A DNA stretch of 57,801 bases, filler included, from Dugesia japonica (lineage: Eukaryota): the NCBI GenBank assembly GCA_001938525.1. It is 5 parts of 5 records of this genome, joined end to end, with 100 filler letters (N's around TTAATTAATTAA, not from the genome) between each part and the next. Parts side by side here need not be neighbours in the genome. Positions count along the whole stretch, not along the records: positions 27,147 to 37,804 come from MQRL01183985.1; 4 more parts are not named here. One strand, 5' to 3'. Below are positions 2,530 through 57,801 of this stretch, piece after piece (positions within the stretch are counted from its first letter, which is position 1; every line of letters starts with the position of its first letter). Made by a program: the position numbers and the translations under genes. The notes beneath the pieces are model-generated. The model searched no databases. It was not told the DNA's origin and saw only the letters and a program-made list of their open reading frames with translations.

Positions 2530-4470
2530 ATATACCCAAACTCTATATTACATTTTTACTATGTAAAAAGTACCTTCATAAGTCTTAAATTACAAGTTTG
2601 TTATGTAAATTAATTCACTCATAAGCCTTATATTTCATAAACCTTATGTTTCATAGTTGATATGTAAATAATACAAAATAACTATGCAAATAGTATACAC
2701 ATAAACCTTTAATATATGGTTAGTATGTATTAATACACTCGGAATACTTGCAACACATGTTTGCTATGTAAATACTACACGCAAAAACCATATATTAAAA
2801 GGCTGTTATGTAAATATTACATGGTATCTAAACAAATAATATACTCGTAAACATTATATTACACGGTTACTGTGTATTGATACACTCATAATCCTTATAA
2901 TGCATGGTTGCTATGTAAAGAATGCAATGTAACTATGCAAGTAACACATTAATAAATCCTATAATACACGGTTTCTATGTAAACAATCCACACAAAAATC
3001 ATATCTTAAATGTTACATGTTACCTAAGCAAATAATACACTCGTAAATCTTATAATAATTATTATACAAGGTTGTTATGTAAATAATTCCCTTGTAAGTC
3101 TTATATTATAAAGTTTTTATGAAAATAATATACACCCAATACACGGTTACTATGTAAATAATACACTGAAACCATATATTTCATAGTTATTATGTAAATA
3201 ATACAAGGTAGCTATGCAAATAATATACTAATTAACCCTATAGATATCAAAATATTTACTTATAAGTCTTTTTTATATAGTCTTATTAGGTATTGAAAAA
3301 TTCTGTTTTTTTTATCATTTTGCATAGTCAAATTCCCAGCTAACATGTTTTTATGAAAAAATATTATGTTTTCATCATTTTTATAGAAAGTTGTCACCAC
3401 ATATATGTTATTTTTTTATAGAAAATTGCATCGCTAATGAGATTTTTTATTAAAAATCGGTATTGAGATCTTTTATAGACAATTGTCACTAGTAATATGT
3501 TTTTTACAGAAAATTTTCACTAGTAATATTGTTTTATAGAAAATTGTCACTAATTACATGTTTTTATAGAAACATTACATGACTAATATGTATAATAGAA
3601 AAATTACATATGTTTTTAAGAAAATAAAAGTTCTATGTTTTTAAATCTTGTAAAGAAAATTTTTATCATGAAAATATCAAAGACTTCCCTCTGAAATTTT
3701 TAATGGATATTTTTTATCATGAAAATGTCACATAGACTCCCGTTTTGGAAGTTTTTTTATGTATATGTTTTATCAAGAAAATATCACAATGACTCCTCTC
3801 TTTGAAGTTTTTTGATAGATATATTTTATCATTTAAATATCGCAAAGACTCCCTTCTTTGGTTATGCACTAAAAATCACATACATGGAAATTTTTATTAA
3901 TAAATGCAATAGATATGCAACTTCGATGTCACAAGAATCCAACATACACGTACACTGAAAATCATGCGTCAAAGAATTTTTAATAAATTTCCAAGCAAAA
4001 AGAAATTTTTAAAACTCAACATGGCCGTCATTTTGAACTTTTTATTGATTTTTTAATAAATGCAATAGGTATGCAACTCAGATGTCATGAGAATGCAACA
4101 CACATACAATAAAAATCATGTGCCTAGGAAATTTTATTAATAAATGCGATAAGTATGCAACTGAGTTGCCACAAGTACGCAACACATGTACAAAGAAAAT
4201 CATTTCACATTGACCCATCCCTTGCAACATATCAAGACTACACCATCTAAAGTAAAATATAAAGAAAAAATAAATAATGCTTCACACAAGACTGTTCAAT
4301 CTCTTACAAAAATATCAAGACTGCCCCATACCATGCAAAATATATAAACTCCCCATGCTAAATATCAAGACTGCCCCATACGATGTAAAATACAGAAACT
4401 CTCCGTTACTAAATATAGAAACTCTCCATGCTAGATATCAAGACTGCTCCATTTCATACAAAAATATAAA
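2530..4470. repeat. Series of degenerate tandem-repeat arrays inside the Maverick
   Basis: GTTRCTATGTAAATAATACAC units (about 2540-3240), TTTTATAGAAAATTGTCAC units (about 3340-3600), TTTTATCATGAAAATATCA..GACTCC units (about 3660-3860), TAATAAATGCAATAGRTATGCAAC x3 (about 3890-4200), ATATCAAGACTGCCCCAT units (about 4230-4460). Confidence 0.85.
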
Positions 4471-27146: not shown

Positions 27147-27401
27147 ATATTACACCAATTACAATCGAATATACTGTACCACTGACCTTGAAAATTTCCT
27201 CCCATCACAATCAAGTATACGTAAACACTTTGACCTTGAAAAAAAATTTCCACCAATCACAATCAAGTATACATAAACACTCTAACCTTGAAAAAATTTT
27301 CCTCCAATCACAATCAAGTATACATAAACACTTTGACCTTGAAAAAATTTGACCTTGAGGAGGGGGGAGGGGGTGTTTATGTGCGCTACTATCTATCTAC
27401 T
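27147..27401. mobile_element. Maverick TIR end with roughly 50-bp tandem repeats
   Basis: ACCTTGAAAAAATTTCCTCCAATCACAATCAAGTATACATAAACAC x3-4, then G-runs and GCGCTACTATCTATCTACT. Confidence 0.7.
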
Positions 27402-27677
27402 GTTTTGTGTTTGCATGTTATGTTGTGCAGGTAATTGACTGTTGTTTGTTATGACTTTTGTTTGTATTGTATGTTGTATCAGTGTGGATTGATTATTGTG
27501 GATGCTGGTTGTCTGAATGTTTTCTCTAAAATAAAGGAATAATTAATTATTGATTTTAAGGTCTGGTTAGTCCTATATAGTGCTACAGGTCATAGTAGCG
27601 TGCTATATAAATAAAAATACATATAGATAATAATATAAACTATTAATAGTGAGTTTTTAAAATTTAACGTAGGGTGC

Positions 27678-28527
27678 TTAGACTAATGTCCATTGGATAT
27701 AATTTGGAATTTGTGGGTTATTGCGACGCCAATAATGCTGCTTCTTCCACCTGTATCGCTTATGCATTTGAATTATCATAACTATAAAACCGAGAAGGAA
27801 AAGTAATGCAATCATTCCCAGTATTGAAAAAGGGTCATATAATATTTTAGGATCAAATGGTTTTACTGTTGTTGTAATCCATAGTTGTAGAATTTTATTT
27901 CGTAATTGTTGATAATCTACTTTTGGATTGTCTCGAGAGTTTTCCTTGAACCACTTTAAATGCTTGTGTTTATATTTAATGTTACTTGTTTTATGACACT
28001 ACTTGGTGATGTATTTATATGTAAGGTGCTTGTTTCTCTTTGCTCTGTATATATCGCCTTGTTTGTTGATATCATATTTATGCTCGTTATTTTCTTTGAT
28101 AAAATTTTCTGATTTGATGCGGTTTTAAACACCTTTGTTATTACAACTGGCTCTTCCTTCTCTACTATCCATTGTACTATGATTTGATACCATGTGTCTG
28201 CTTCCAAACCTTGTAGCTGTATCCGACTTATTTCTCGACCAAATTTCTCCTCTATTGATACGTATAAGCCTGTTTCCATAATTAATTTGTTTCTTCTTCT
28301 TGCTGATACTTGTGTTATGTTTTCTATATCATTGTGTGCAATGAAGGTAATTTTATCTGAATATATTGTTCTGGTCAAGTAATTTTGTCCTTTTCTTGTT
28401 GAGCTGAACTTAGTGTTATTAGAGCGAGTACTGTTAATGTCAAGAGTGGTAGAGTATTCTGTGAACTCGATCGACGATTATACTTATGTTGCTTTTGAGG
28501 TTCAATTTCTGCTTCCGCTATTTTACA
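27678..28527 (-). pseudogene. Signal peptide-FN3-like-S/T stalk-TM protein following the Gypsy integrase
   Basis: Integrase frame continues CKIAEA...HKYNRRSSSQNTLPLLTLTVLALITLSSA|QQEK; after a shift IQLQGLEADTWYQIIVQW (FN3 L-x-x-L-x-x-x-T-x-Y), then a Thr/Ser-rich tract; after another shift ILGMIALLFLLGFIVMII-QMHKRYRWKK...TLV*. Confidence 0.65.
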
Positions 28528-31500
28528 TCAATTTACTGCTACAATTATTGGATCATCATTTTTATTTTCTATCACATGTAGACCGGTTGGAGTTACTTTG
28601 ACTACTTCATATGGAACTTTGTAATGTCTCGCCAATTTATTTGTTAATACTTTCTGTGTAACTGGTATTTTTATTCTCACTTTATCTCCAATTTTGAAAT
28701 TATGCTCCTTGGCATTTTTATCATATTGATCTTTGTATTGTTCTTGTTCGAATTTCACTTTTAAATTTTCATGTTTGTATACTTCTTGCAATCTCTCTTG
28801 AATCTTTGTAACATAATCTGGATTATCCATATATTGCGATACAGCCGGTTCAAATGTTACATCTATCAACATATGGTTTTGTCTTAGATACATCAAGTAA
28901 AAATATAAATATCCTGTAGCCTCATTTTCGGTTGTATTATGTATGAATAACTTGGGTTTGATAAAGAGATCACAATCATTTTGATGTTTATTTACGAAAA
29001 CTGCCAATCTATTACATAATATACTGTTAAATCTTTCTACTAATCCATCTGTTTGTGGATGATAGGTCGTTGTATTTATTTTCTTGATATCAAACATACT
29101 TGTTACTTGTTGTATGACTTCATTGAGAAAACTTTTCCCTTTGTCTGATGATAGTTTTTTTCGCGCTCCATATTTGTAAATAATTTTCTCAACTAATAAT
29201 CTTGCTACTGTTTCTGCTGCTTCATCTTTTGTAGGAAATGCTTCTGCAAACTTTGTGAAGTAATTGTTGAATACTAATATGTGTTTATTACCTTTTATGG
29301 TTGTTGGTAATTTGCATGGGAAATCCATTGCGCATGTTTCCATTGGTGAGCTGGGTCTTGGCATGGGCTGCAATGGAACTTTAGTTTTTGTTCCTGTATT
29401 CTTTCTTGTATCACAAACACTATATGCTTGACACCATTTTCTCGCATCATCTTTAATATTGTGCCTATAATACTTTTGCAACAATCTCGACGTGGTTTTT
29501 CTACTTGACAAGTGTTCTCCAAGTGCTCCATCATGGTATTGTAATAGTAATAACTGTTTTAGAGAGTCTGGCTCAATCATTAGATTTTTTCCTAGGTTAT
29601 TGTACATGAGCAGACTTTTATACATTTTATATTTAGTATTCTTTTCTTGAATCATCATCTTTTTAATTTCTTGTATTTTTATCTTTATTTTGTTCTTATA
29701 AAAATGTTTTTGGATTTGTTCAAGTTACAATTGACATAATTTCTAATACATTTATTTCTGAAATTCTGAACAATGAATCTGCATTTCTATTAGCTTTTTC
29801 TGGTTTGTATATAATACGTATGCTCATATCTTGAATTTTCATCGCCCATTTGAGTATTCTACTGGATGCAACCTTATTTTTCCACAAACCTTCTAGTGAT
29901 TTATGATCCGTTCGTATAATTATTTCAGTTCCATATATAAATGGTCTAAACTGCTTTAACGCAAATATGATAGCTAAACATTCCTTTTCGATAATTTAGT
30001 ATCTTGTTTCCGCTGCTTTTAACATTCTTCTTGCATATGCGATGACATAGTCTTTATTTTTCTCGTCTTCTTGCCCGAGTACTGCCCCCATGGCATATTC
30101 GCTTGCATCTGTCATTACTATGAATTGTTTGGTAAAATCTGGGTATCTTAGTATTAGGGTTGTTAACAATCGTTGTTTTAGTGTATTGAAGGCTCCTTGT
30201 TGCTTAGGACCCCATTGAAGTTTTTTGATTTTTCATCTAATTGCTCTACAATCATAACATTTTTGCTTTCACCTTTTGTTTTCACGCCTTTTGTTAATTC
30301 TACTAATGGTGATGCTATCTTTGCAAAGTTTTCTATAAATCTCCGATAATATCTCACTAGACCATTAAATCTTTTTAATTGTTGTACGCATTTTGACACT
30401 GGAAAATCTTGAACTGCTTTCACTTTCTCTGGATTGGGTTCTAATCCTTTTGATGATACAATATGTCCAAGGAATAAAACACTTTCCTTTGCCCATTTAC
30501 ATTTTCTTGGCTTTAATTTGATATTTGCCTTTTTGATTCTGGATAATACATTTTTTATGTTGACTAAATGTTGCTCTAACGATTTGGATGCTATTAATGT
30601 CATATATGTATACCACTACATGTTATACACCTGCTGGTACTGTGTTCATTAATCTTTGGTACGTAGCTGGTGCATTGCATAATCCAAATGATAATCGAAC
30701 AAACTCATATAGTCCACCATCAGTACAAAATGCTGTCTTTATTCGATTCTCTTTCTGTACTGGGATCACATTATAACCTTTATTGGCGTCTAAAATTGCA
30801 AAATACCACGCGTTCATGAGTTTATTGAATTGTTTGTGTATCTTTGGAAATGGATGTGTATCTTTTTTTGTAGCTTCATTAAGTTTTCTGTAATCTATAC
30901 ACATTCGAATTTCTCCATCTTTCTTTTTAACTGGTACTATTGGTGATGCCCCTTGACAAAAAACTATTTTGTATGATTCCATTAGGTTTGTTTTCCTCTA
31001 CTTGTCTTTTTATTTCTGGTTTCAACGCATATGGTGCTACATATGGTTGTTGTTTTAAAAGCCTCGTATCGCATGTGTCAATCATATGTTTTATAATATT
31101 TGTTCCTCCCATATCGAATTCATGCTTGGCAAATGCATCCTCATATTTATCCTATAATTTCTGTAATTGTTGTTTTTGACTCACTGTAATATCTTTGTTC
31201 GTTATCTTTGTTTTCTCATATTACTTAGTTTGTTTGGATTTTATGAGTTCTGTGTCAATTAATTTTCCAATTTTGCTTTGCTGATCTAAAATAAATTCAA
31301 ATAAATCATGACTACTTAACTGACTTGTCATTTTGCTTGTTTTTTTTGCGATCTCACAATGTTGTGATATGGTGTATCTGGATAATTAGGTGAAAATAGT
31401 TTATTCAGTAACTGCATGTTTGTTTTCCTTGGTTGTTTCTCAATTACAATTTCATATATCTCATATCCACTACCGTTTTCAAATAATCTTCCTAATTTTG

Positions 31501-32201
31501 TTCCTTTCTTCAGTGTCATATCGTAATTATTAACGTTTGTTATTCTCATTGGTATTGTACCTTTTTTCGGTTCTACAAATCCATACATTATTGATAAATA
31601 ATGTTTTGATGTTAGTTCGGTTCAAAAATATATGAATCTTTGCTTTGAAATTCTGTGTTAATGGGTATTATACATTCACTACAATGTTCTATCGTTATTA
31701 ATTCTGTTGCAAATACATCATAATATTTAGTTTGTACTAGTAACGGAGTTACCATTTTTAGTGTACTGTCTTGTAAGTCGATGACATAACCCTTTAATCT
31801 TGCAAGAAAATCCATGCTTGAAATGCTATTTTGTGTTCCATTTTCCATTACTCTAAACAATTTCTTATCTGATTGTGACTGTACATTCAATTATTCTTTT
31901 TGTTTTTATTATATGATCTGTAAATGATTTTATACCTTCTGGTTTATAATTTTTATGTTTTGTTTTTGTGACTCTTTTATTATTGAGCTTCTGTATCTGT
32001 TAGTGAAGGTATATTGATTCCGTTTACTATGATGTCTCTTGTTGGTCGATTATTTTCTGAGTCTATAACTACTATTTGATAATTTTTTTGATATTTGTAT
32101 TGTGATTGATCATCTATTTTTATATGTTTTAATTCGATACTTTCATGTTCATATGGTTTATATTCATTATCTGACGACGTGTAATTCTTGTCATTAGTCA
32201 T
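28528..32201 (-). mobile_element. Ty3/Gypsy family A pol (PR-RT-RNase H-INT), disrupted
   Basis: PR IVNGINIPSLTDTEAQ; RT SPIVPVKKKDGEIRMCIDYRKLN, GLYEFVRLSFGLCNAPATYQRLM; RH VMTDASEYAMGAVL; INT HHCC zinc finger, SDKGKSF, YHPQTDGLVERFN. Confidence 0.95.
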
Positions 32202-32253: not shown

Positions 32254-34005
32254 TTAACTATGGTTTTGCACAATCACATGTTTTGCGATGAATAAACAGA
32301 AAGATGCTCCTAATTTCCAAGTGTAACCAAAACCTGCATGTAATTATCTTAAAGAAAGAAGTTGATGATCCGTTAATTTTAAGAATCTTAATACATACCA
32401 CCCAAATAAAATACATGAGAATATTACATTAACCATTACATTCGCTCCAAGAATCTATCTTAAAAATGACGCATTGTCCTTTTAAAATGATCTACGTGCA
32501 ATAGTGACTCAAAATTTACATCATTTCCAGTACTCCCTTTTACTACTTTGTCAACCATTATGGATATTATCTTTTCTCTTTGTATTGGGAAAAGCATATG
32601 TTTACTTACTTTCTCAATATTATTGATAGTGTGAATTCCAAGATTTTTCATGTTGTCAATTCTCTCCATTTCGGTTGTTCTCTGAGTTTTATCATTTCCA
32701 TTATGAAGGGAATTGGTGCTGTCTTTCTATTTGATACTGTTATCCATACTTTGTCCGTATTTTATACATAGGTTCAAGAACGTTACTACACTTTCCAATT
32801 ACATTTGGTTGATAATGTTTATCTGTTAATATTCTTGCTATTGCGAGTAAAAATACCTTTTCTCCTTTATAGATTACTGGTAATTCATTAGTGCATTTCT
32901 CATAATCTGGGAGAGTAACTGCTACTGGTTTGCATCTAAAACTTACCAAAGTTTCTCCCACTATTCTTTCAAATGTACCTTTTCTTCGAGCAAGAGTGCT
33001 ACAACCAAATCAGGTTTTGTGACTTCCATTGCCATTTTTGTTCTTAACAATTCTCGGTAAATTTTACATTCTTTCATGACGGTTTCCTGATATTTTCTGT
33101 CTATTTGTCTTAATATTTCATGATATAGGAAATCAATTTTGTTGTTTAAGTAGGCAGCTATTTTCACATTTAATTTATCTACTTCTGGTCTGGCATCTTT
33201 AATTTCCGTTGTTGATAAATATAGACCATTGTAATTGGTTATTTTTACCGCCACGCCACATTTGGTGTCTACTCCTTTTCCAATAAATCTTAGCGCTTCT
33301 TGTGTTGAAATTGATATATATATATATATATATTTGGTGTTGCCTTTTCATTGATTACTGTTGTTTTCCTTTTTTTATCTCGAATATTAGGTGGCTTATC
33401 CTTTGGTTGAGTTCCATTAATTTCTTTCATTGCCACTGTTCTTAATTTTGTGAGTGTACATTCAAACGGATTTATTTTGTATGTGATCATGGACTCTCCG
33501 GTATCAAAATTTGTATCTTTTGAGCTACAAAATGGATATGTCATCATCTTTCCAGTACCAGCGTCGAATGTTGCTTTTATTTTCTTTAATTCGACATGAT
33601 ATCAGTTTTTACTTGTCATCATATTTTATAGCTTCCTCCTCCACAATATCCAATTGCTGTGAACAATCCTACGATGTCTACTTTTTGTTTCACTATTGTA
33701 CCTACTTTTACTTGTAACTCATTACCATGTACTTTTAGCGTTTTTGTTTTAAATGCCTTTTCACAATCACTTGCATCTATTATTACTATGTCTGGAGACC
33801 AAGCTGGTATTAGTGGTATTATTTGTGTACTATCACAATATGATACTTATTCTTTAAACTTTACACTACATTCATATGCAACTGCGTGTAAAAAATCAGA
33901 TTCTTGATACAAATGAATAATTGTTGGATTTGATATTTTCATTTTTGTAGGATGCGCTTCTGGAAAATTATCTACATCTAATAGTGAATATTTTTTTGCC
34001 CCATT
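32254..34005 (-). pseudogene. env-like glycoprotein, chuvirus G / class III fusogen type, disrupted
   Basis: YSLLDVD, HLYQES...AYECSV...SYC, YLNNKIDFLY, ECKIYRELL...PDL, GETLVSFRCKPVAV...CTNELPV...RIL...C...PMYKI, TM NVIFSCILFGWYVL, LHAGFGYTWKL follow the motif order I recall for chuviral glycoproteins. Confidence 0.78.
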
Positions 34006-34029
34006 TTAGAGTATTCCTCTTGATTTGAT

Positions 34030-36807
34030 AGGGTCTCTCATAAAACTCTTGATTCTTGTTTCAGCTTTCACTAAGACCATATCACTGACTCCAATTGTCT
34101 TTTGGTTAGTATATCTTCATCTTGCTCTTTGTGCACTCTTTGAGCATTTGCTTCGCACACTTTTCTATGCTTATTTTCTTCCCAAATACGATTTCAACAG
34201 GGCTTTTCCCGATAGTATTCTGTTTTGTAGCATTCAAGGTAAATTCTATCTCTGGCAATACATTCGCATAATCCGAGGTTTTTCTTTCTTCAAGTTTCGC
34301 ATTTATCATATCTGGCATAGTTATAAACTGTCTTTCAATTTGGCCATTTGTGTTATGATGATATGGACTCAAAACCCTGAGGGTAATTCCATGTCTAGCT
34401 GCAAAATATTTCATTGATTTAGAATCATATGCTCTTCCACAATCAACTCGAATTTCTCTCGGACACCCGAACTTTAATATCTACTTCTCCATAATTGCTT
34501 TCGGTTTTGTATCTTCATCTTGTCTTGTCATTGCAACCAAGGCTACATATTTACTGCATTCTTGCTGGTTGTCTCATTTTTGTTTCTTCCTTTGTTTTGT
34601 TTGGTTTTCTGGCATGTTATACAGCTTCGAACAACCCCTTGTACTTTGCTCCACAAATGTTCCCCTTTATATTTACATTTGTATAAAAATACATTATATA
34701 TATTTTATCTTATTTTAATTTATCCGAAATTTTATTAACGTCAAATTTAAAAATACATTAGATATATTTTGTCTTATTTTAATTTATCCACAGTTTATTA
34801 AATTTCCAATTAAAAAATACATTATATATATTTTATCTTATTTTTTTATTTAAATATTTAAACAAACTGATACATTAAAAATATTTGTTAAAATACATCA
34901 TATATATTTTGTCTTATTTTCTTATTTAAATATTTAAAAAACTGATTTCAATAAATTCTAACTCAAAATACAAAAAATTAAATCTGCTTTTAAAAAATAC
35001 CTTTCGTGATCCATATGCAATTAATTTTTCTTGTCCATTGTTGTCAATTTGAGACAGTTCTACACCAATCGTGTCGAAACTCGCATCCGTGTCAAAAAAA
35101 TTCTCTATTTATATCTGGAAAACATAATATTGAAAACATCATTAGCGCTTCTTTCATTCCATTAAAAACTTCTTCTAATTCGTTCACCCATCCAATTTTC
35201 TTGTTACTTGGTCACTACATAGTTGTTCCAGCAATCTGGCTTTTTTCGAATAATCTTTAATAAACTTGCGATAGCAATTGAAAATTCCCCAAAAGCTTCT
35301 CATCTTCTTAACGCATGTTGGTTTACCAAAGTTCTGAATTGCTTCTATTTTAGTTTGATCGGATTTGACACCTTCTTTACTGAAACCATGTCCAAAAATT
35401 TGATCTCCTTTCGCATGAATTGACATTTCTCCGGGTTAACTCTTAAAACAGCATTCTTAATTTCTGTCAATACTTTACTGACTATATCATAGTATTGCTT
35501 CTTTGTTTCGGTAAATATGAGAATCTCGTCTAGATAAATCATCACTCCTTTTATTTTCCTGATCACTTTATTCATCATTTCCTGGAACGTACCTGGTGCT
35601 GCTGCAATTCCAAAAGGCATTTTACTGAAACAATATTGTCCTTGTTTGGTCGAAAAAGCCTTCTTCTCTTGAGAATTTTCACTGAGTTCTACTTGATATT
35701 ATGCATTTCCCCAGTCAATTGAGCTAAAATACTGTGTACATTCCAAAGCATCCAGCATTTCGTCCACATTTAGCATATAAAAAGATTGTCTTTCTGTTAT
35801 TGCATTGAGCTGTCTAAAGTCTAAGCATAATCATATATCCTTTTTTTCCTTTTTCAAAACGCAGATTAATGGCATATTTCATTGAGAATTACACTTCCAC
35901 ATGATACCGCTATCATACAGATTCTTGGTGGCCTCTTCAATCTTCTCTTCTAAATTCATTAGTTGACGATACAATTTCATGTTGATTGGACCTCCATTAG
36001 TGATTATTTGATGCTTCGTTAAATGTGTGCATCCAATGTCTCATTTTACCACACCCTAAACATTTTGGTGATTTCTTGTCTGGACAAATTCTACTTAAAT
36101 GCCCTTTCTTGTGGCAAGTCCAACATTCAAAGAGTGAACTTTTCAGATACTCTTTTTTTGTATGCCCATAACTCTGGCATGTCCAACACTGTGGTTCTGT
36201 TCTTTTCGTAACTCTTTCGATATTTGGTCTTCTCTCTTCGATACGTTCTCTACGTGTTACACCCACGTAACTCTTTACTACGTTAATAGTTTCTCTTTTT
36301 TCTATTTTTTCCACCAATGATAGTGTTTCTTATATATTTTCTACTTTTTCCAATTTTTGCAAGACTATTTCCTCTTCTGTCTTTTTTACTATCTGCCCAA
36401 AATATTAGCATTTTTGACAAGAGGTTTTCTTTCGTCAGCTCTCCGTTTGCTAAAGATTTATCGACCAAATCTTCCACTTTTTTAAAGAACACCTCAAGTT
36501 TTTCACCACCACGACGATAGCTTACAAGATTCTGAAAATCTTTTATTACATCTCTCTTGCTCTCAAAAGCTAATCGCAATCTCACTTAATATCCGTTCGC
36601 TTTCTTCAATGTTTTTACATATGTTTCCATTAAATCTTCATCAAGCATACATGTTATCATGCGCTACTGATCTTACTTAATAACGATGTTCTTTGCCTCG
36701 AAGTATATTTCACACCGTTTAAAAAACTTCTTTAGATCATTGCTTCTGCAAAATATCTTTGGCAACAATTTCTCTGTGATTGCATCGGTGTTTACCGCTG
36801 CCACCAT
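34030..36807 (-). mobile_element. Ty3/Gypsy family B (gag with CCHC knuckles, RT, partial RH, INT), disrupted
   Basis: gag MVAAVNTDAITEKLLPKIFC, CWTCHKKGHLSRIC; RT MPFGIAAAPGTFQ...YLDEILIF; INT SPYHHNTNGQIERQF. AT-rich repeat insertion at about 34680-35000. Confidence 0.92.
36794..36806 (-). promoter_or_regulatory. Primer-binding site TGGTGGCAGCGGT (tRNA-Leu-like)
   Basis: Complementary to a tRNA 3' end ACCGCUGCCACCA; sits at the 5' end of gag. A decayed copy follows ...AACA at 46057. Confidence 0.7.
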
Positions 36808-36809
36808 TT

Positions 36810-37804
36810 GAAACACTCATCACTTACAGCATTTTTATCGATGAACAACTTTTTAAACAAAAAAGTAGTCTCGCAATGGGTAACAATTTGTCTCCTATTT
36901 TAGCGATAATTTTTATGAACTTTATTGAAAATAAAATTGTTCTCAAAGCTAAGAAGAAGAAACATCTTTGGGTCAGTAATATAGATGATATTTTCTTTAT
37001 TACTAATTCTCCTTTAAAAATATTGTGGAACTAGCGAATAGTATTAATAATAACATCAAATTAACTTAAGAGAAGTCAGTCGACTTTCAGATTCATTTTC
37101 TGGACACCTTAATCCAAAAGAAACTTGGTGAAGTATTAACTAACCAGTTAAATATGAAACAATTATACAGTGAACAGCTATTACCCTGGAGTAGTAATAC
37201 TACCATCAGACAGAAAATTGGAATAATCAAGTGTAAAAGATTATAAGAGCTGAAAGACTATTTATAAATGAAGAAATAAGATTGACTTCACTCAGGTTGA
37301 TTAAAAAATAAAATTTCTATATAATGGTTACCCAATCGTATCTAAATATTTATCCTCAAATACAAAATTTAATAAAATCAAACAAAAGACAAACACAATA
37401 ATTAAAAGACCTTTTATTAATGAGAAATGTAGCCAAATCATGGAAAATATAATTTAAAAATCAAAACTCAAACACAATCCGAGAATTATATTTAAAACTC
37501 AAGCACTTTTGGGTATCCAATTACAGAAACCAAGACAGAACTTTCGTGGTTCCACATGCATTTGTGATGGTAGAAATATATGCAATTAAAAAAATATCAC
37601 TTAAAAAATAACATAAACCTTATGTAAGGATACATATATAGGAGAAACATGCAGAGCCATCCGTACAAGAATTAAAGAACATCTCAAACAGAAAGAAAGT
37701 GAAGTCTTCAAATTCTTTCAACAGAAACATAATATTTTACCAGAAAAATATCATATTACATGGAAAACATTAGGAACAGGCTACATTTCTACACTTCACA
37801 GAAA
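36810..37804 (+). mobile_element. Penelope-like element family 2 (RT + GIY-YIG), 5'-truncated
   Basis: LAMGNNLSPILAIIFM, NIDDIF, FLDT; YIGETCRAIRTRIKEHL. Confidence 0.9.
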
Positions 37805-38159: not shown

Positions 38160-38545
38160 ACTGATCTGCATTTCAATGCAACTCCCCTTTTCGATATTCC
38201 ATTTTCATGTCCAAACTGCTCAAAAATTTAAGCCGTGTTTGACACTGTGGCGTTACCGGTTTTATTGTATTTGTCATAAACATAATTGCTTTATGATCCT
38301 TTTTAATCAAAAATTTCCTTTCATATAAATACTGCCTAAAATGTTGAGTAAAATAATAAATAGCCAACAATTTGTACCTAGTTATGCAATACCCTAACTC
38401 GTATTTGGTCATCAGCTTAAATTCATAAGCAATAACACGTTCGAATCCGTGATCATAGCTTTGTGATAAAACTATACCTATTGTGTCCAATCTTGCATCA
38501 GTATTTAAAATTAAATACACAATAATTCCTCCAAAACTCAAAATT
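38160..38545 (-). mobile_element. Gypsy RNase H fragment
   Basis: ILNTDA...IGIVLSQ...ERVIAY...YCITRYKLLAI...FRQYL...DHKAI...YRKGELH. Confidence 0.88.
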
Positions 38546-38989
38546 GGAGTGATTTTGTCTGATGATTACGGTTTCTCCGCCAAAATATGTAACAATTAAG
38601 TCTTATTTTAAATGGAGTTATTTATATTCTAATATCTTCTTTATGTTTCTTCAATATACACATAAGCGGACTATTCCATTTCGATTTACATTTCTTTATA
38701 ATTTATAATTTTTTACGTTACAGTAAATATTTACAGAGAAAAAAAGTAATGCACTAAAAAGATCTACAATTTAACAAATACAATATGAATAAATTACAAA
38801 TAAATTTAGAAAATCTTTTTTGGCTCTGATACAAAAATTACAATTGACTAATTAATTAATTATCTTTAATTTTTAGCTTTTAAAAATTTCGCCTATCATA
38901 AATTCCTTACAATGATAATAATAATAATGATAATAATAATGATAATAATAATATTAATAATAATAATAATAATAGTAATAATAATAATT

Positions 38990-40395: not shown

Positions 40396-40904
40396 TATTG
40401 TTGTTAATATGATCTTGGGGCACAGGAAATTGTCCGGGAGAGTAGTTAATTATTCAGGATATAAATTAACTATCTGGGATAGCAGGTGAAGCATAATTCG
40501 GCTTGATTTAAACAAAAATCATCAAACGCCCTTGATGTAAACAAATTAAAATTTCCGATCGATTGCGAAATAATTTTGTAATTTTTACGTATTATCATAT
40601 TGATAGCATCTTATCACAATGTTATGTATTACGTAATAAGCTAAACTCATCTTGATTGGCTGGCGAAAGGGGATTCTAACTAACTCTCTGATATCTACAA
40701 CTAAATTTTAATTTTTAGGAATAATTTTTACTTTTTCATTAAACGTTTTTGTAGATTAAATGAATGAAAACTGAATTTAAAAATTATTCTATACCTAATC
40801 AATGTCTAATTCAAATAAATGAGTTTCATTGGATGATAAATAATTGGATGAAATACAATTAACTATTAAAGATATTTGACATTTCATATTTTTTATTGTA
40901 ATCC

Positions 40905-41954
40905 ATGTCTTTACTTTGCTTAAATAATACGGAAAATGAAACATTTTATTTCAAGTCCAGTAAAGTAATTTTAATGATGTCGGAAATTTATCATGTTCAT
41001 CATCCGATTATCTCTCTTTCTTCATTGAGTATTGGTTTGATTTTATCAATTTTCAATATTGTTATTCTCAATATTAAAAATATGTTAACTCCAACCACGT
41101 ACATGTTAACACGAATCGGTATTATGGATATTTTTACAATGGTGATTTATATTCCTTATGTGCTGTATTTCCATGTTTTTAATCCGTGTGATATTTATCG
41201 TGGAATTGTAAAAAAATGGGCTGCGTATTTTTTATTTGTTTATATCATTATTGTTAACCTTAGCCATTGTACTAGTATTTGGCTCGCTATAATGCTGTCG
41301 GGATTTAGACTTCGGTGTTTAAGGCAATTAAATTTCAATATTGTTTCAGCTTGGAAACAAGTCAAATTTTTATCATGGATAGTTTTGATAGTCACTTGTT
41401 TCATAAGTGTTTTGAATTATTTCACGATCAACTTGGTAAAATATAAGGATCCGAGTTATGGAACAATTTATTCCATTAAAATGTCTAAACATTACTTAAT
41501 TGGTATACAAGCATTGATTATTAAACTTTTACCATCAATCATTCTTACGATTCTAGCGGGAGCAATAACTTATGAGTTAAAGAGATTTATACGATTGGGA
41601 AAATGTATTGGTAAACAAAGACATATAAGCAATACAACATACACTCTGATTGCTTTAGTACTTTTATTTATTTTCCTCGAATCTCCACAAGGCATAATAA
41701 TATTTATCAGTTCATTTGATATGTTGTTTTTTAATGAAATCTACAATCCGTTAGGAGATATGTTAGATCTCATGACAATTATTCGAACTATTGCCAATTT
41801 CTGTATGTATTGCATCATGGATAGACGATATCGGAATATATTTGTCAATATCATTTGTCCTTTTAGAAAACTCAAAACTCAAGAAAAGGATTACGCTCTT
41901 TATCCATTATGTAAAAGGAAATTCAGTTTACCGAATTGTAAAATGAATAAATAA
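40905..41954 (+). CDS. Rhodopsin-family peptide GPCR, DMSR/myosuppressin-receptor-like, intact single exon
   Basis: 349 aa with seven hydrophobic segments; TPTTYML...DIFTMVIYIPY, HCTSIWLAIMLSGFR, TTYTLIALVLLFIFLESPQGI, LGDMLDL, NFCMYCIMDRRYR. Confidence 0.92.
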   Translation: MSLLCLNNTENETFYFKSSKVILMMSEIYHVHHPIISLSSLSIGLILSIFNIVILNIKNMLTPTTYMLTRIGIMDIFTMVIYIPYVLYFHVFNPCDIYRGIVKKWAAYFLFVYIIIVNLSHCTSIWLAIMLSGFRLRCLRQLNFNIVSAWKQVKFLSWIVLIVTCFISVLNYFTINLVKYKDPSYGTIYSIKMSKHYLIGIQALIIKLLPSIILTILAGAITYELKRFIRLGKCIGKQRHISNTTYTLIALVLLFIFLESPQGIIIFISSFDMLFFNEIYNPLGDMLDLMTIIRTIANFCMYCIMDRRYRNIFVNIICPFRKLKTQEKDYALYPLCKRKFSLPNCKMNK

Positions 41955-49119: not shown

Positions 49120-51560
49120 TACAAACTTTCATTTTCTTATTATGGAAATTGATAACAACATTGAAGACATTCAATTTAAACTATTAAAAACATATAAGAA
49201 CAACAAGAATAACAATAAAAAGTGTAATGAAAATCAGATTATTAAAGAAATTATAAATTTAAAATCAATTATCATTACACTAACAGATAAAAAAACTAAT
49301 TGGTAGCTCTTTCTGAACAAACATACAATGAATATTTTTCTGAACATTTAAATAATTATGAAACAGAACCTCACAAAACCAACTACAGAAGAAATAAGAT
49401 TCAATAAACAACTAATTCAAATAGCAGAAAAATATGAAGACCCAGTAAAATCTTTACTTTTAAAAGTCAAATGTCATGAGCCAGTTTTATTCTCAATGTA
49501 TTGTGTTCCGAAAGTCCACAAAACTACAATGAAAGAAAAATCTATGATCATCGCTTCTGATACTCCTTCAATTGCATTATGCAAATTTTTGGCAGATATA
49601 TTAAAATCACTATTACGTTTCATTCCGACACATTTAGAGAATAGTTACGAATTTATCGAACGAATTAAAAATTATGACCGGAAGAGTGATGATAAATTTG
49701 GATTGTAAGATAGTTTTTGAAAGCAATTTTAAATTTTTTATATATCGAGACGAAATTATTAAAATTATTTTGTTAAATATTTTTAATTAAATCATAAAAG
49801 AAATTTGTGAAATAAACATAGCATTTTATGTATTTAAATGTTCACGAACAACTCAACTTTCAATTTATTTATTGTAGTAAATTTTAAAATAAATTATTTA
49901 AATATATTATTTTGTAATTTTATTTAATCAAAATATTTCAAGAATAGGAATTTTTAAATTTATAATTTGTTGATAACTTTAAAAATTTGTAATTTACAGT
50001 GTATATTTAAAAGTTATAATTCGTAGTCATAAATAATATAAATGCTCGAAATTATTAAATTTTTGATATAAATTTAATTTACTTTAAAACATTTTGTTAT
50101 GGTATTTTGAAATTTTATTTAAAATATATTTTGATAAACTAATTTTTTTATTTTAAATTCTTGGTTAAAAAATTTTTAAATTTGTTTGAAAAGACAAATT
50201 TATATATGGTGTTTTTGTTTTGTCTTGAATAAATATTGGAAAGATAAATCTATATAGATCAATTTTAATTGAAGGATCTGAAAATGTCATTGATATTATA
50301 AATGACTTCTTTGAAAGATACAAAGAACACACAGATATTCCAGAGATCACCAAAAATGATTTCAAATGTTTTATTAATTTGTGTTTCTTCTCTGATAGCA
50401 TTTTTTAGGTGAAGAACTTTTTAAATAAAAAGATCGTCTCGCAATGGGTAACAATGTATCTTCAATTCTAGTGATAATTTTTATGAACTTCATTGAAAAT
50501 CAAATAATTCTTAAATCAGACAAGAAAATTTATGTATGGTTTAGATACATCAACGATGATATTTTCTTTGTAACTAATTCTCTTTTAGAGAAAATTTTAG
50601 AGTTAGCCAATAGTATAAATGATAATATTAAATTCACTTTAGAGAAATAAATTGACTTTCAGATTTCTTTTTTGACACTTTAGTCCAAACGAAACCTGGT
50701 GAAATATTAAGTACCCAATTGTATATGAAACCATTTCACAGTATACATATATTACCTTGAAGTAGTAATACTACCATCAGTCAGAAAATTGGTAGAATTA
50801 AAGGTGAAAGAATTCGAGTTGATAGACTATATTCAAATGAAGAAATAAAATTGATTTCTCTCAAGTTGAAAAAAATGAATTTTTAAATAACGGCTGCCCA
50901 AATAAAGTTATATCAAAATATTTATCTTTGAATAAAAAATATAATAAAATCAAACCAAAAACAAACACAGTTATTAAATTACCTTTTATTAATGTAAACA
51001 TGTATGTAGTCAAATCATGAAAAATATAATAAAGAATTCTAAACTAAAACACAATCCAAGAATTATACTCAAAACACAAACACCTTTGNGCATCCAATTA
51101 CAGAAACCAAGACAAAATTTTTGTGGTCCCAAATGCATTTGTGATGGTAGAAATATATGCAATAAGAAAAAATTCACTTATAAAATAACATGCACCATTA
51201 GTAAATAATCATATATAGGTGAAACAGGCAGAATCTTCCGAACATCTAAAACAAAAAGAAAGTGAAGTCTTCAAACGCTTTCAACACAAACATAAAATTT
51301 CACAAGAACAACAGCACATTACATGGAAAACACTAGGAACAGCCTATTCACAGGAAAAAACGTGAAGAATTACAAATTTAACAAGACAATTCTAAAATCA
51401 ATGTAATTAATAATAATTAAATAATTAAAATTTAAAAAAATTAAAATTCAGTAAAATAAATTAATTCAAAAATAAATTTGATCGAAGTTGTTTTTAATGA
51501 AATTTCAAAAAACAATCAATGGTTACATCGAACAATTATTCTCGCCATAATTGTAATTAA
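49120..51560 (+). mobile_element. Penelope-like element family 2 (RT + GIY-YIG) with an AT-rich insertion at about 49710-50230
   Basis: MYCVPKVHK, HLENSYEFI, MGNNVSS...WFRYINDDIF, YIGETGR; colinear with 36810-37804. Confidence 0.9.
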
Positions 51561-53419: not shown

Positions 53420-54900
53420 TCACTGACGAATATCTTTCTTGTCCTTTTTCCAATGCATACTAGATGAGCAGTCCAAGGAGAATTATACTTTCTAATAATG
53501 CCATTCTCGAATAAATTTTGAATCACCTACTCAATTTCTTTTTTCAGCTGAAACGGCATTTTATATGGTTTCACATTGATGGATTCTCGTTTTGTTACAA
53601 TTCTATGTTTTACTAAATGAATCTGTCTTACTTGATACATGGAAACATAAAACGTTTTCCAGATTTTGACATATTTCTTTTTTTTCTTTCTCTTTTGACA
53701 TACCGATCATGTGTAATGCTATTTCCTATCTTTTATCTTCCTCTATTTTACAAAATTTGGACTTTATATTATCCATTATTTCTTTTCATCCTGTTTTTCC
53801 ATTGCTTTATTACCCGCTAAAGCTGAAATTCAAAAATATTTTGAAAATTTATTCCCTTGATAATATCTGGAAATACATTTTCAACTACCACAAATTCCAC
53901 TTCCATGATCATTTCTATTAACTGTACTTTTAAAGTATTTTATCCGTTGTTTCCAACGAACTACCATTTGTACAACATAAGTTATTCTCACCAGATTACG
54001 GCCGAATTCCCGACCACTTACTCAAACATTTATCATTTACCACGTTAATATGAACTCCCATATATTACAATCCACTTCCTTAATTTGGGGGCAAACTGTT
54101 ACACTTGACCTGTCTTTCGGCCAGTCAAAAAAATTTCACCTGTTTTTTTATTTTTATGAATATTCTCACCAATTCTACTTCATAAGCCTCTTGAAACTTC
54201 AGAAACCGATACACTTTCTCAAACACTTTCTCTTTGCTTTCCTATTTATCTGCGCCTTAAAGATATTCTCTATCTGCCAACATTATTGAGCAGCTTTATC
54301 AATTTCCCTCTTGTTGAAGTCTCTATTTGGGTATAATGTCTTCCATCCTGTTTCCTCAATCTTAACATTTTTCTGTTCATTCACTTCTTCCGCTAGCATA
54401 GTATTGAAATTAATTGTATCAATTTCTATGCTCTTTTCCCGCTCCGTTCCTTTTGCTCACTTGGTCTCATTTTCCATTCTCAAGATAATACTTTGCTCTG
54501 TCTCAATCTATCACATCGAAAACAATTCAATTTTGTACAGCTGCGTCTCAAATGGCCTGACTCACCACACGCAGCATATGTCCCTTACTTTCTTACTGAA
54601 AAACTTTTACGTAATCGTCTCTTTATATGACACTCCCAGCACTCTTTTGTCTCACCTCTGGATATTTTTTGGACAAACATATCAATCTCCATACTTTTAC
54701 TCTTGAATGTTACCAATTTCTTAATTTTTTTAATGTCTTTTTTTCTTTTTGGAATGGTAAACGTAATTTTACCTGAAAATCCGAGACTTTATCCGCAGTA
54801 TTTAAATATTTCTCGATTAAATTAACTTCCCAAAAACTTGAAAACAGTTTTTCTAATTCTTTTTGGTTGCTGATTCCTCAGGATCCAAAATATAATTCAC
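53420..54900 (-). mobile_element. Gypsy family C remnant (gag knuckles to RT start)
   Basis: CGESGHLRRSC...CFRC; KPYKMPFQLKKEIE*VIQNLFENGIIRKYNSPW. Confidence 0.75.
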
Positions 54901-56804: not shown

Positions 56805-57801
56805 ATCCTTTGAATGGTCTGGCCAGTTTGTTTGTTAAACCTGTTTTTTGAATTTGGAGTCTTTATTCGCACTTTATCTCCAACTTTAAATTGATGTGGT
56901 TTCTCACTTTTGTCATAGTAATCTTTGTATTGTTGTTGTTTGAATTTTATTCTCAATCCAGCTTGTTTATACACTTCCTGTAATCTTTCCTGCATTTTCG
57001 TGACATAATCCGATTGTCCATGTGTTGTGATACAATAGGCTCGAATGTAACATTTATCGTATTGTGATTTTCTCTCAGGTACATTAAGTAGAATGGTGAA
57101 TATCCAGTTGCTTCGTTTTCTCTTGTATTATGAGCAAATAATGCTGGTTTAATAAATAAATCCCAATAACTTTGATTTTTGTTGACAAATACTGATAGTC
57201 TGTTACATAGTGTACTATTAAATCTTTTCACAAGACCGTCTGTCTGTGGGTGGTATGCTGAAGTATTTATTTTTTGAATATTAAACATTTCATTGACTCT
57301 TTTAACTGTTTCACTTAAGAAATTTCTACCTCGGTCTGATAATAATTTTTTGGGTGCTCCATATTTAAAAATAATTCTTTCTACAAACAACTTTGCAACT
57401 GTTTCCGCTGATTCATCTTTGGTGAGAAATGCTTCGACCCACTTCGTAAAATAATCGCTAAATACCCAAATATGTTTATTACCTTTTATTGTAGTTGATA
57501 ATTTGCTTAGGAAATCCATAGCACATATCTCCATTGGTGAACTAAGTATTGACATTGGATGGAGTGGTACTTTTGTTTATGTTCCAGTGTTCTTTCTGGT
57601 TGCACATATTGAACAAGCTTTTGCACCATTGTTTTACATCTTCTTGTAAGTTTTGTCAATAATATTTTTGTAAAATTCTAGATGCTGTTTTTCTACTTGA
57701 CAAGTGTCCGCCAAGAGCACTATAATGATATTGAAGAAGTAACATCTGCTTTAATGAATCAGGGACAACCCATAAATATTTTCCCATATTGTCATATACA
57801 A
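56805..57801 (-). mobile_element. Second Gypsy family A integrase copy, truncated at the GPY/F region
   Basis: Colinear with 28528..29658 (DYFTKWVEAF, SDRGRNF, YHPQTDGLVKRFN, FKVGDKVRIKTP). Confidence 0.93.

Follow-up and report, generated by a model that had tools for sequence, protein, structure and literature searches.

Ty3/gypsy elements with a GAG-ENV-POL order and a gB-type envelope protein have been reported in nematodes, bryozoans and flatworms (Chary and Hayashi, eLife RP108449, PMC13524379). In planarians, the giant Gypsy element Burro (GYPSM1) encodes a very long polyprotein of about 4900–5100 aa in which env lies in frame between gag and pol; its Env resembles mononegavirus fusion proteins, and ankyrin repeats, accessory ORFs and MATH, BIR, BCL2-like, SUMO-like and Smc domains have been described in it (Arkhipova and Yushenova, 2019, PMC6431247). 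The bdelloid elements Vesta and Juno carry, downstream of pol, an extra ORF3 that is either TM-bearing or a DEDD exonuclease (Rodriguez et al., 2017, PMC5408684). Outside the retroelements, the planarian secretory cell nidovirus has a single giant ORF with ankyrin and fibronectin-named domains and a Thr/Ser-rich region, for which a role in host interaction was proposed (Saberi et al., 2018, PMC6211748). In this study, we report a locus from Dugesia japonica that, with a probability of about 93%, is a dead member of a Ty3/gypsy clade whose elements encode one polyprotein consisting of Gag, then a signal peptide, gB and a TM, then PR-RT-RNase H-INT, and finally a second signal peptide, one to three fibronectin type III (FN3) domains, a Ser/Thr-rich stalk, a TM and a tail. 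This organization is shown in intact relatives and is broken in the window, by which we mean the whole stretch of 57,801 nucleotides that was analysed (assembly GCA_001938525.1). An in-frame env ahead of pol is known from Burro and from the GAG-ENV-POL errantiviruses; the FN3 module past the integrase is apparently new as far as the accessible parts of these sources go, and no description of it was found in the literature on fibronectin or FN3 in retroelements, though figures, sequence repositories or RepBase notes could show it.

Features of the decayed element, in the order of its coding strand (positions count along the whole window)
Feature	Positions	Strand	Basis
Decayed gB-type (class III, chuvirus/Monjiviricetes-like) fusion glycoprotein	32260..33999	-	PF24664; tblastn to L016
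Decayed aspartic protease, about 70 codons past the gB membrane region	31759..32040	-	motif by eye; tblastn
Spacer, reverse transcriptase and RNase H, frameshifted	29762..31603	-	tblastn to L016 residues 2003-2526
Integrase ORF (H2C2, core, C-terminal domain)	28531..29724	-	Pfam, homolog searches, tree
In-frame stop within the conserved end-of-integrase motif	28528..28530	-	16/16 relatives cross it in the same frame
Integrase tail and cytosolic linker, without Met	28456..28527	-	reading of the frame
Predicted internal signal peptide (basic n-region, Leu-rich core, small -3/-1 residues)	28402..28455	-	maximum KD12 2.6; pattern in relatives
FN3-fold domain (modelled), seven-strand beta sandwich, one frameshift past the signal peptide	about 28111..28387	-	features, model, Foldseek, profile
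Ser/Thr-rich stalk and juxtamembrane segment, second frameshift inside	27825..28110	-	composition
Predicted transmembrane helix, 18 residues	27771..27824	-	KD19 2.91; DNA common to many same-species copies
Basic cytoplasmic tail with class I PDZ-type end, then natural polyprotein stop	27678..27770	-	tail motif count

The integrase ORF scored above the Pfam cut-offs for Integrase_H2C2 (E 1e-11) and rve (E 5.5e-8). A search with it returned 11 proteins at 327–384 bits, the next best scoring 247, and a clade motif found in 11/11 of these top proteins and in 0/109 others retrieved five metagenome loci, all five of them open-frame members; further relatives were added by a second integrase search. 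IMG/VR yielded no clade member, and loci L001–L012 are distant Gypsy elements that were left out. In a quick maximum likelihood tree of 61 integrase rows (the window, the 34 top-ranked of 263 rows and one in nine of the remainder) the window falls in a 22-row clade with a support of 95; its end branch is long, as a decayed copy would lead one to expect.

An earlier note on this DNA had proposed that the stop after the integrase is a lesion, and that the same frame continues through an integrase-tail motif into a signal peptide. Both proposals hold up. All 16 relatives aligned here, which include the near-duplicates P0003 and L013, cross the stop at 28530–28528 in the same frame, with alignments reaching between 28522 and 28456, and for this reason the stop is most probably a lesion of this copy. 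The integrase frame stays open for 50 codons past it, up to a second stop at 28377–28375; this stretch has a basic tail motif and no Met ahead of a hydrophobic segment of 18 residues that lies exactly at 28455–28402 and has small residues at -3 and -1. Hydrophobic segments are also present in several relatives at a similar distance past the integrase.

The remainder of the module is spread over two further frames, one shift lying between 28401 and about 28378 and the other within 27998–27959. The ORF at 28477–27956 carries the beta domain and the stalk, in which Ser and Thr make up 31% of the first 54 aa and two N-glycosylation sequons occur, and the frame at 27998–27678 carries the TM and a basic tail of 31 residues that ends at a stop at 27680–27678. 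Ser and Thr make up just 12% of the 27960–27880 part of this last frame, and the path across that part is not certain. Otherwise the FN3-like domain, Thr/Ser stalk, 18-residue TM and basic tail that the earlier note had reported, with two shifts, past the signal peptide were all recovered. Contigs from two DNA runs span the shifts without gaps (X6, 0 differences and 0 gaps over 27913–28456; X1, 9 substitutions and 0 gaps over 27900–28572), and both shifts are therefore genomic and not assembly errors, to the extent that these runs, which may derive from the assembled strain itself, can tell. One stop and two shifts in about 850 nt fit the decay rate elsewhere in the element, and the module shares the A-rich strand composition of the element (A 0.43 vs 0.44 in INT). 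With the signal peptide and TM called from hydropathy and homologs, the predicted product fits the pattern of a type I membrane glycoprotein, with a signal, an ectodomain with sequons, a single TM and a basic tail. Hydrophobic stretches as such are not unusual in this DNA, since the six frames of the window hold 11 non-overlapping 19-mers with a KD of at least 3.0; the case for the module rests on the order of its parts and on the relatives, and the pieces alone prove little.

Among 20 non-duplicate clade relatives, 15 run from the integrase to a C-terminal TM without a stop and 14 contain one to three FN3-like repeats; the module is fused to INT in intact relatives and is encoded by the element, as the earlier note had held. 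The five that have no C-terminal TM are P0004, P0010 and P0128, which are possibly truncated, as well as P0121 and P0134, which end about 150 aa past the integrase without a hydrophobic segment. Single ORFs with gB before PR and the signal-FN3-TM module after INT are found in L016, P0125, P0127 and P0272, which are the relatives that reach far enough upstream to show gB (PF24664 in intact relatives, E 1e-84 to 1e-95). The layout of P0127 is that of the window. P0272 is one ORF of 3735 aa with a capsid-like N-terminus, two CCHC knuckles, a signal, gB and a TM, followed by protease, RT, RNase H, INT, a signal, two FN3-like repeats, TM and tail; its Gag matched zf-CCHC at E 5e-6 and Ty3_capsid at E 0.011, the latter below the cut-off. 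The lineages that keep FN3 repeats have integrases only 40–49% identical to that of the window. The ectodomain varies from one to three repeats, with or without cysteines, and P0011 and L015 have a different Cys-rich domain in place of FN3. An extra signal-FN3-TM unit occurs between gB and PR in L016 (residues about 1585–1765; polyprotein L016:2-10279) and in P0009 (48–229), and elements of this type would make three membrane proteins. Ankyrin domains are found in P0003, L013 and L017, and protease-like or ankyrin insertions precede the second signal in variant relatives.

Several other features of the relatives were observed. An extra aspartic-protease-like domain (D-[ST]-G) lies between INT and the second signal in P0001, P0125, P0128, L013, L015 and L017, and two or three protease-like domains lie before RT in several relatives; possibly each cytosolic loop has its own protease. 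One or two separate ORFs of about 440–505 aa follow the polyprotein (L013:1148-4251, L015:1113-2627, L016:10617-12104, L017:183-3242), two of which scored as RNase_T (DEDDh; E 1.4e-5 and 1.5e-11) and one of which had no such match. When seven such accessory ORFs were used as queries, no downstream exonuclease ORF was matched in the window at E <= 0.05. A 27-nt AT-rich splice-acceptor-like stretch at 27525–27551 (-) matches L014 at about 3814–3839 with 93% identity, lying past the polyprotein stop in the window and before the next ORF in L014; this match may be due to chance. The more distant P0200 (3243 aa) has gB before PR and, past INT, a signal-like segment with a non-FN3 ectodomain, and the truncated, distant P0133 has a signal-like segment past INT and an ectodomain that looks Ig-like by eye. 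P0004 and P0127 carry labels of bacterial metagenome-assembled genomes in NCBI (Turicibacter and Flavobacteriaceae), and they are most likely animal DNA mis-binned into these.

The Pfam fn3 model gave no row at E <= 1 on the window, so the PF00041 cut-off was not reached and we call the domain FN3-fold and not a member of PF00041. In the relatives, the fn3 match of P0004 (E 0.21) and the fn3_2 match of P0005 (E 0.69) were also under the cut-off. By language-model features, the window domain alone was assigned to fn3 at 0.91, with the ten best named matches all in the family (10/10) and a recognition of 2260, under the 2300 mark of the tool; the L016 repeats obtained 0.92 and a recognition of 1788 by the same features. 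A profile of alignment A2 matched fibronectin among PDB sequences at E 1.3e-4, and AF2 with this alignment gave seven strands with a pLDDT of 81.4 and a pTM of 0.70. A single-sequence AF2 model had a pLDDT of 43.7 and was discarded; the good model depends on A2. Its best structural match (VIA) was fibronectin 6mfa (Z 10.6, rmsd 2.3, 82 aligned), and Foldseek returned 17 matches at E <= 0.001; among the matches listed, all were FN3-type or FN3-derived, and the top matches in a viral structure library were likewise FN3-type. The nearest folds include FN3 domains of cytokine receptors, RPTP, Dscam and fibronectin. The FN3-like fold on which the earlier note had staked its reading is therefore supported, as a modelled fold.

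The sequence relationship between the window domain and the clade repeats is weak but above chance. A profile built solely from the cysteine-bearing repeats missed the domain (domain E 31), as did a cysteine-poor profile, where 37/1000 shuffles reached its score. A pooled clade profile built without the window domain gave it 7.9 bits untrimmed, equalled by 2/1000 shuffles, and 13.3 bits with 0/1000 shuffles after trimming, the trimming having been chosen after the untrimmed result. On unseeded repeats the pooled profile scored 15.4 bits for P0125, 15.9 for the first P0127 repeat and 3.7 for the second (71/1000 shuffles); leaving out one lineage at a time, 22/29 repeats stood above all 200 shuffles, and no non-clade protein was matched among 264 searched. 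BLAST and phmmer with the FN3 piece found no direct homolog, 0/229 candidates passed when the FN3 and stalk piece was compared with longer proteins, and the A2 profile search matched, besides P0003, just two proteins with multiple FN3 domains (E 7.6 and 9.9). Neither a donor gene nor a stand-alone domesticated copy of the piece was identified in those searches, which are weak negatives.

Upstream of the integrase, PF24664 matched three pieces of the window (E 4e-9, 9e-13 and 1e-5), and tblastn was collinear with L016 residues 498–1082. In the frame of the gB tail, visual inspection showed a degenerate catalytic motif of a protease, with a tblastn match to L016 1926–1950 (E 0.043). Because the intact L016 is collinear with the window over gB, PR, RT, RNase H and INT, gB is taken as part of the same element. 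The order PR-RT-RH-INT is the Ty3/gypsy (Metaviridae) pol order, and gB lies upstream of PR as it does in L016, P0125, P0127 and P0272. Over 4422 aligned nt the element has accumulated 7 stops and 12 changes of frame and so lacks the intact ORFs by which the described gB errantiviruses were selected; this copy is a decayed relative, not an intact member, of the GAG-ENV-POL gB-type group, and from the spacing of its parts we infer that it was once a single polyprotein. The 5' end of gB abuts, with no LTR in between, the truncated integrase of an unrelated Gypsy (about 36820–34010), and Gag and the gB signal peptide are absent from the window, this 5' part being lost. The earlier note had suggested looking for the 3' LTR downstream of 27678. 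None was found, nor was an LTR pair or a purine tract in the window, the 3' side of the element meeting a 52-nt tandem repeat and then a gap; the contigs of the relatives likewise yielded no LTR pair. A second integrase of the same clade, at 56808–57801 (-) with 72% nucleotide identity, breaks off at 56808 before the junction and says nothing on the module.

The surroundings of the element hold other sequences of mixed origin. The unrelated decayed Gypsy at 34010–36820 (-) has a gag with CCHC knuckles followed almost directly by RT, with no protease seen by eye, and its upstream region recurs at 50386–51346 with 79% identity; further Gypsy fragments lie at 53431–54700 (-) and 38164–38547 (-). 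Beside the gap, 27191–27347 holds three copies of the roughly 52-nt tandem unit, to which related sequence is very abundant in the DNA runs and also occurs in the RNA runs. A 350-aa intronless ORF at 40902–41954 (+) encodes an Srw-type 7TM chemoreceptor (PF10324, E 3.7e-17) and is a host gene. No tRNA gene was found in the window.

The clade resembles Smed_errantivirus_1-6 (Platyhelminthes, HSV/gB-type) in having a Ty3/gypsy pol with a gB-type env ahead of it, and 50/105 positions of the window gB are identical by hand count to a fragment of Smed_errantivirus_3 (supplement file 3, PMC13524379), as compared with 38% identity to L016 over a similar stretch; the similarity to Smed_errantivirus_3 would fit a planarian-type host. 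However, those elements are intact, and no second membrane protein past INT is described for them in the accessible passages; in the main text and seven supplement files we find no mention of fibronectin or FN3, and the word "fused" is absent from the main text (PMC13524379). As in Burro, a single gag-env-pol polyprotein is present in P0272, P0127, P0125 and L016, and ankyrin domains in L013, L017 and P0003 (PMC6431247). In contrast to what is described for Burro, P0272 is shorter and has no Pfam match to MATH, BIR, BCL2-like or SUMO-like domains at E <= 0.3, and in the parts of that paper accessible to us neither an FN3 or post-integrase membrane protein nor the word fibronectin appears (PMC6431247). 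The present element is not assigned to Burro, which exceeds 30 kb and has long LTRs. The spacer between PR and RT is conserved and may be compared with the dUTPase-like domain of Burro; no Pfam dUTPase match was listed for the relatives scanned. The RNase_T-family ORFs downstream in clade relatives recall Vesta and Juno, whose extra proteins are, however, separate ORF3s without FN3 (the accessible text has no mention of fibronectin) in elements without an upstream gB (PMC5408684). The planarian nidovirus differs in being an RNA virus, and its domains are given as fibronectin type II, a fold other than FN3 (PMC6211748).

In two DNA runs, contigs at least 80% alike to the element are deep over pol, gB and TM/tail, with 46 contigs (X1) and 34 contigs (X6) at position 27790. 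The FN3 bin, at depths of 18 and 9 that correspond to this one locus, ranks last among the 30 bins, and the linker bins are thin as well (194–1373); these contig depths are not copy numbers. The low FN3 depth may reflect either fast divergence in general or loss or exchange of the domain in other copies. In a quarter of each of two RNA runs, 0/1455 and 0/87 aligned reads matched this copy at 99% or more and none fell in the FN3 bin, and this copy looks silent in those runs. Reads from related copies were present at a low level over pol and, in X9, over the TM/tail bin.

The last three residues of the window protein fit the class I PDZ-ligand pattern S/T-x-V/I/L. An end of this kind occurs in 11/16 non-duplicate TM tails, the window included, and in 6/8 lineages, compared with 3/247 other Gypsy proteins, some of which may be cut short, and 9/174 stop-to-stop frames of the window; the Fisher p of 2e-13 is overstated, since the motif was spotted post hoc and the tails are related. 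Val is the last residue in 13/16 clade tails, which are rich in Tyr and Pro, and PPxY occurs in 3/16. The shared tail motif also marks 27678 as the natural end of the polyprotein. There is a precedent for such contacts in that hDlg1 binds the tail of HTLV-1 Env, a PDZ-binding motif being named in a title cited in that source (PMC3395148).

The earlier note placed the module at the position where env would be expected. It does sit past INT, but it does not stand in for env, because a gB/chuvirus-type fusogen lies upstream of PR; as read from these sequences, the FN3 protein is a second membrane glycoprotein. Flavivirus and alphavirus polyproteins thread the ER membrane, and the alternating signals and TM anchors of the clade polyprotein would thread it in the same style, with gB and the FN3 protein in the lumen and Gag and Pol in the cytosol. 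Signal peptidase would free the N-terminus of each ectodomain and the protease of the element would release Pol, leaving the FN3 protein as a mature type I glycoprotein in amounts equal to those of gB, since both come from one polyprotein. Its fast-evolving, exchangeable ectodomain may bind a host-surface or matrix ligand, while the PDZ-type end (with PPxY in three relatives) could place the protein, together with assembly and budding, at a PDZ-scaffolded membrane such as a cell junction, which would favour cell-to-cell spread. There is perhaps an even chance that the FN3 protein serves gB as a partner in attachment or cell contact, with the PDZ-type tail setting its position. Distinct proteins for attachment and for fusion are familiar from the herpesviruses (gD/gH-gL with gB) and the paramyxoviruses (HN/G with F). 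The clade elements would work like these, with a type I glycoprotein beside the fusogen; unlike in those viruses, both glycoproteins flank Pol in one chain, and no homology to their attachment proteins appeared as far as it was tested. The class III fusogens of rhabdoviruses and baculoviruses achieve attachment on their own, and gB therefore need not have a partner. A shared fold by itself shows no function. It is only tentatively, then, that we propose a two-protein entry system in which a class III fusogen and a hypervariable FN3 attachment protein come from one polyprotein around Pol and a PDZ tail steers particles to junctions for cell-to-cell spread.

The same polyprotein would also be compatible with an FN3 protein that acts on the producing cell, as a receptor mimic or decoy, as a modulator of adhesion or polarity through PDZ scaffolds, or in superinfection exclusion. 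The closest folds, those of cytokine receptors, RPTP, Dscam and fibronectin, agree with this, as do the Tyr/Pro-rich tails with PDZ-type ends, the other host-type cargo of the clade (ankyrin in P0003, L013 and L017; separate DEDDh exonuclease ORFs) and the apoptosis and ubiquitin domains described in Burro (PMC6431247). We nevertheless regard it as rather unlikely, given co-translation at 1:1 with a fusogen and structural proteins, a stalk of the kind typical of attachment proteins, and the thought that a decoy would more simply be secreted. A still less probable view makes the module a membrane tether and sorting device, in which the signal anchor would keep Pol at the membrane where assembly takes place, the tail would bring in PDZ or ESCRT factors for budding and the ectodomain would be interchangeable filler. 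TM/tail DNA is indeed far more common among host copies than FN3 DNA, the ectodomain is of another kind in P0011, L015 and the distant P0200, six relatives have extra protease-like domains between INT and the signal peptide, and the PPxY tails would suit budding; yet folded FN3 repeats, up to three of them, are kept across lineages with integrases 40–49% identical, which is beyond what a tether needs.

The two remaining explanations bear on the architecture. If the stop past INT were functional, the module would be a separate ORF3, reached by splicing or programmed read-through; the stop does occur in this copy, and env is a separate ORF in ordinary errantiviruses (PMC6431247). Against this, the stop falls inside a conserved INT motif that 16/16 relatives cross in frame, no Met precedes the signal peptide, and 15/15 relatives having a TM show no stop from INT to TM. 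The relatives largely refute this very improbable reading; an additional spliced transcript would still be compatible with them. Finally, the hydrophobic stretches might have arisen by chance in AT-rich DNA, or the module might be a piece of a host gene that this copy has captured or that lies next to it, as the 11 strongly hydrophobic 19-mers and the lack of a direct BLAST or phmmer homolog for the FN3 piece could suggest. This is scarcely credible in view of the same order, position and C-terminal motif in the intact relatives, which refute it, the evidence for the fold, the element-like base composition and the multi-copy TM/tail DNA in the host.

In our preferred reading, a dead copy of a clade with the single polyprotein described above, the architecture is well supported from the sequences compared, and the module appears to be a real, clade-wide feature that is seen here in a dead copy. 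The gB-type errantiviruses are widespread in animals and have been annotated with a fusogen alone. A second type I membrane protein hidden in what is annotated as the pol end, with no Pfam match above the cut-off, is one that domain-based annotation of transposable elements misses. The module is a concrete candidate for a determinant of tropism or of cell-to-cell spread, and its conserved tail motif points toward host PDZ scaffolds, to which binding is predicted. The topology would be unusual, with Pol forming a loop in the cytosol that is flanked by two membrane proteins. The planarian host is a model animal in which RNAi, proteomics and imaging could put these ideas to the test. If the two-protein entry reading is true, this would be, as far as we are aware, the first retroelement in which attachment and fusion are split between two unrelated glycoproteins.
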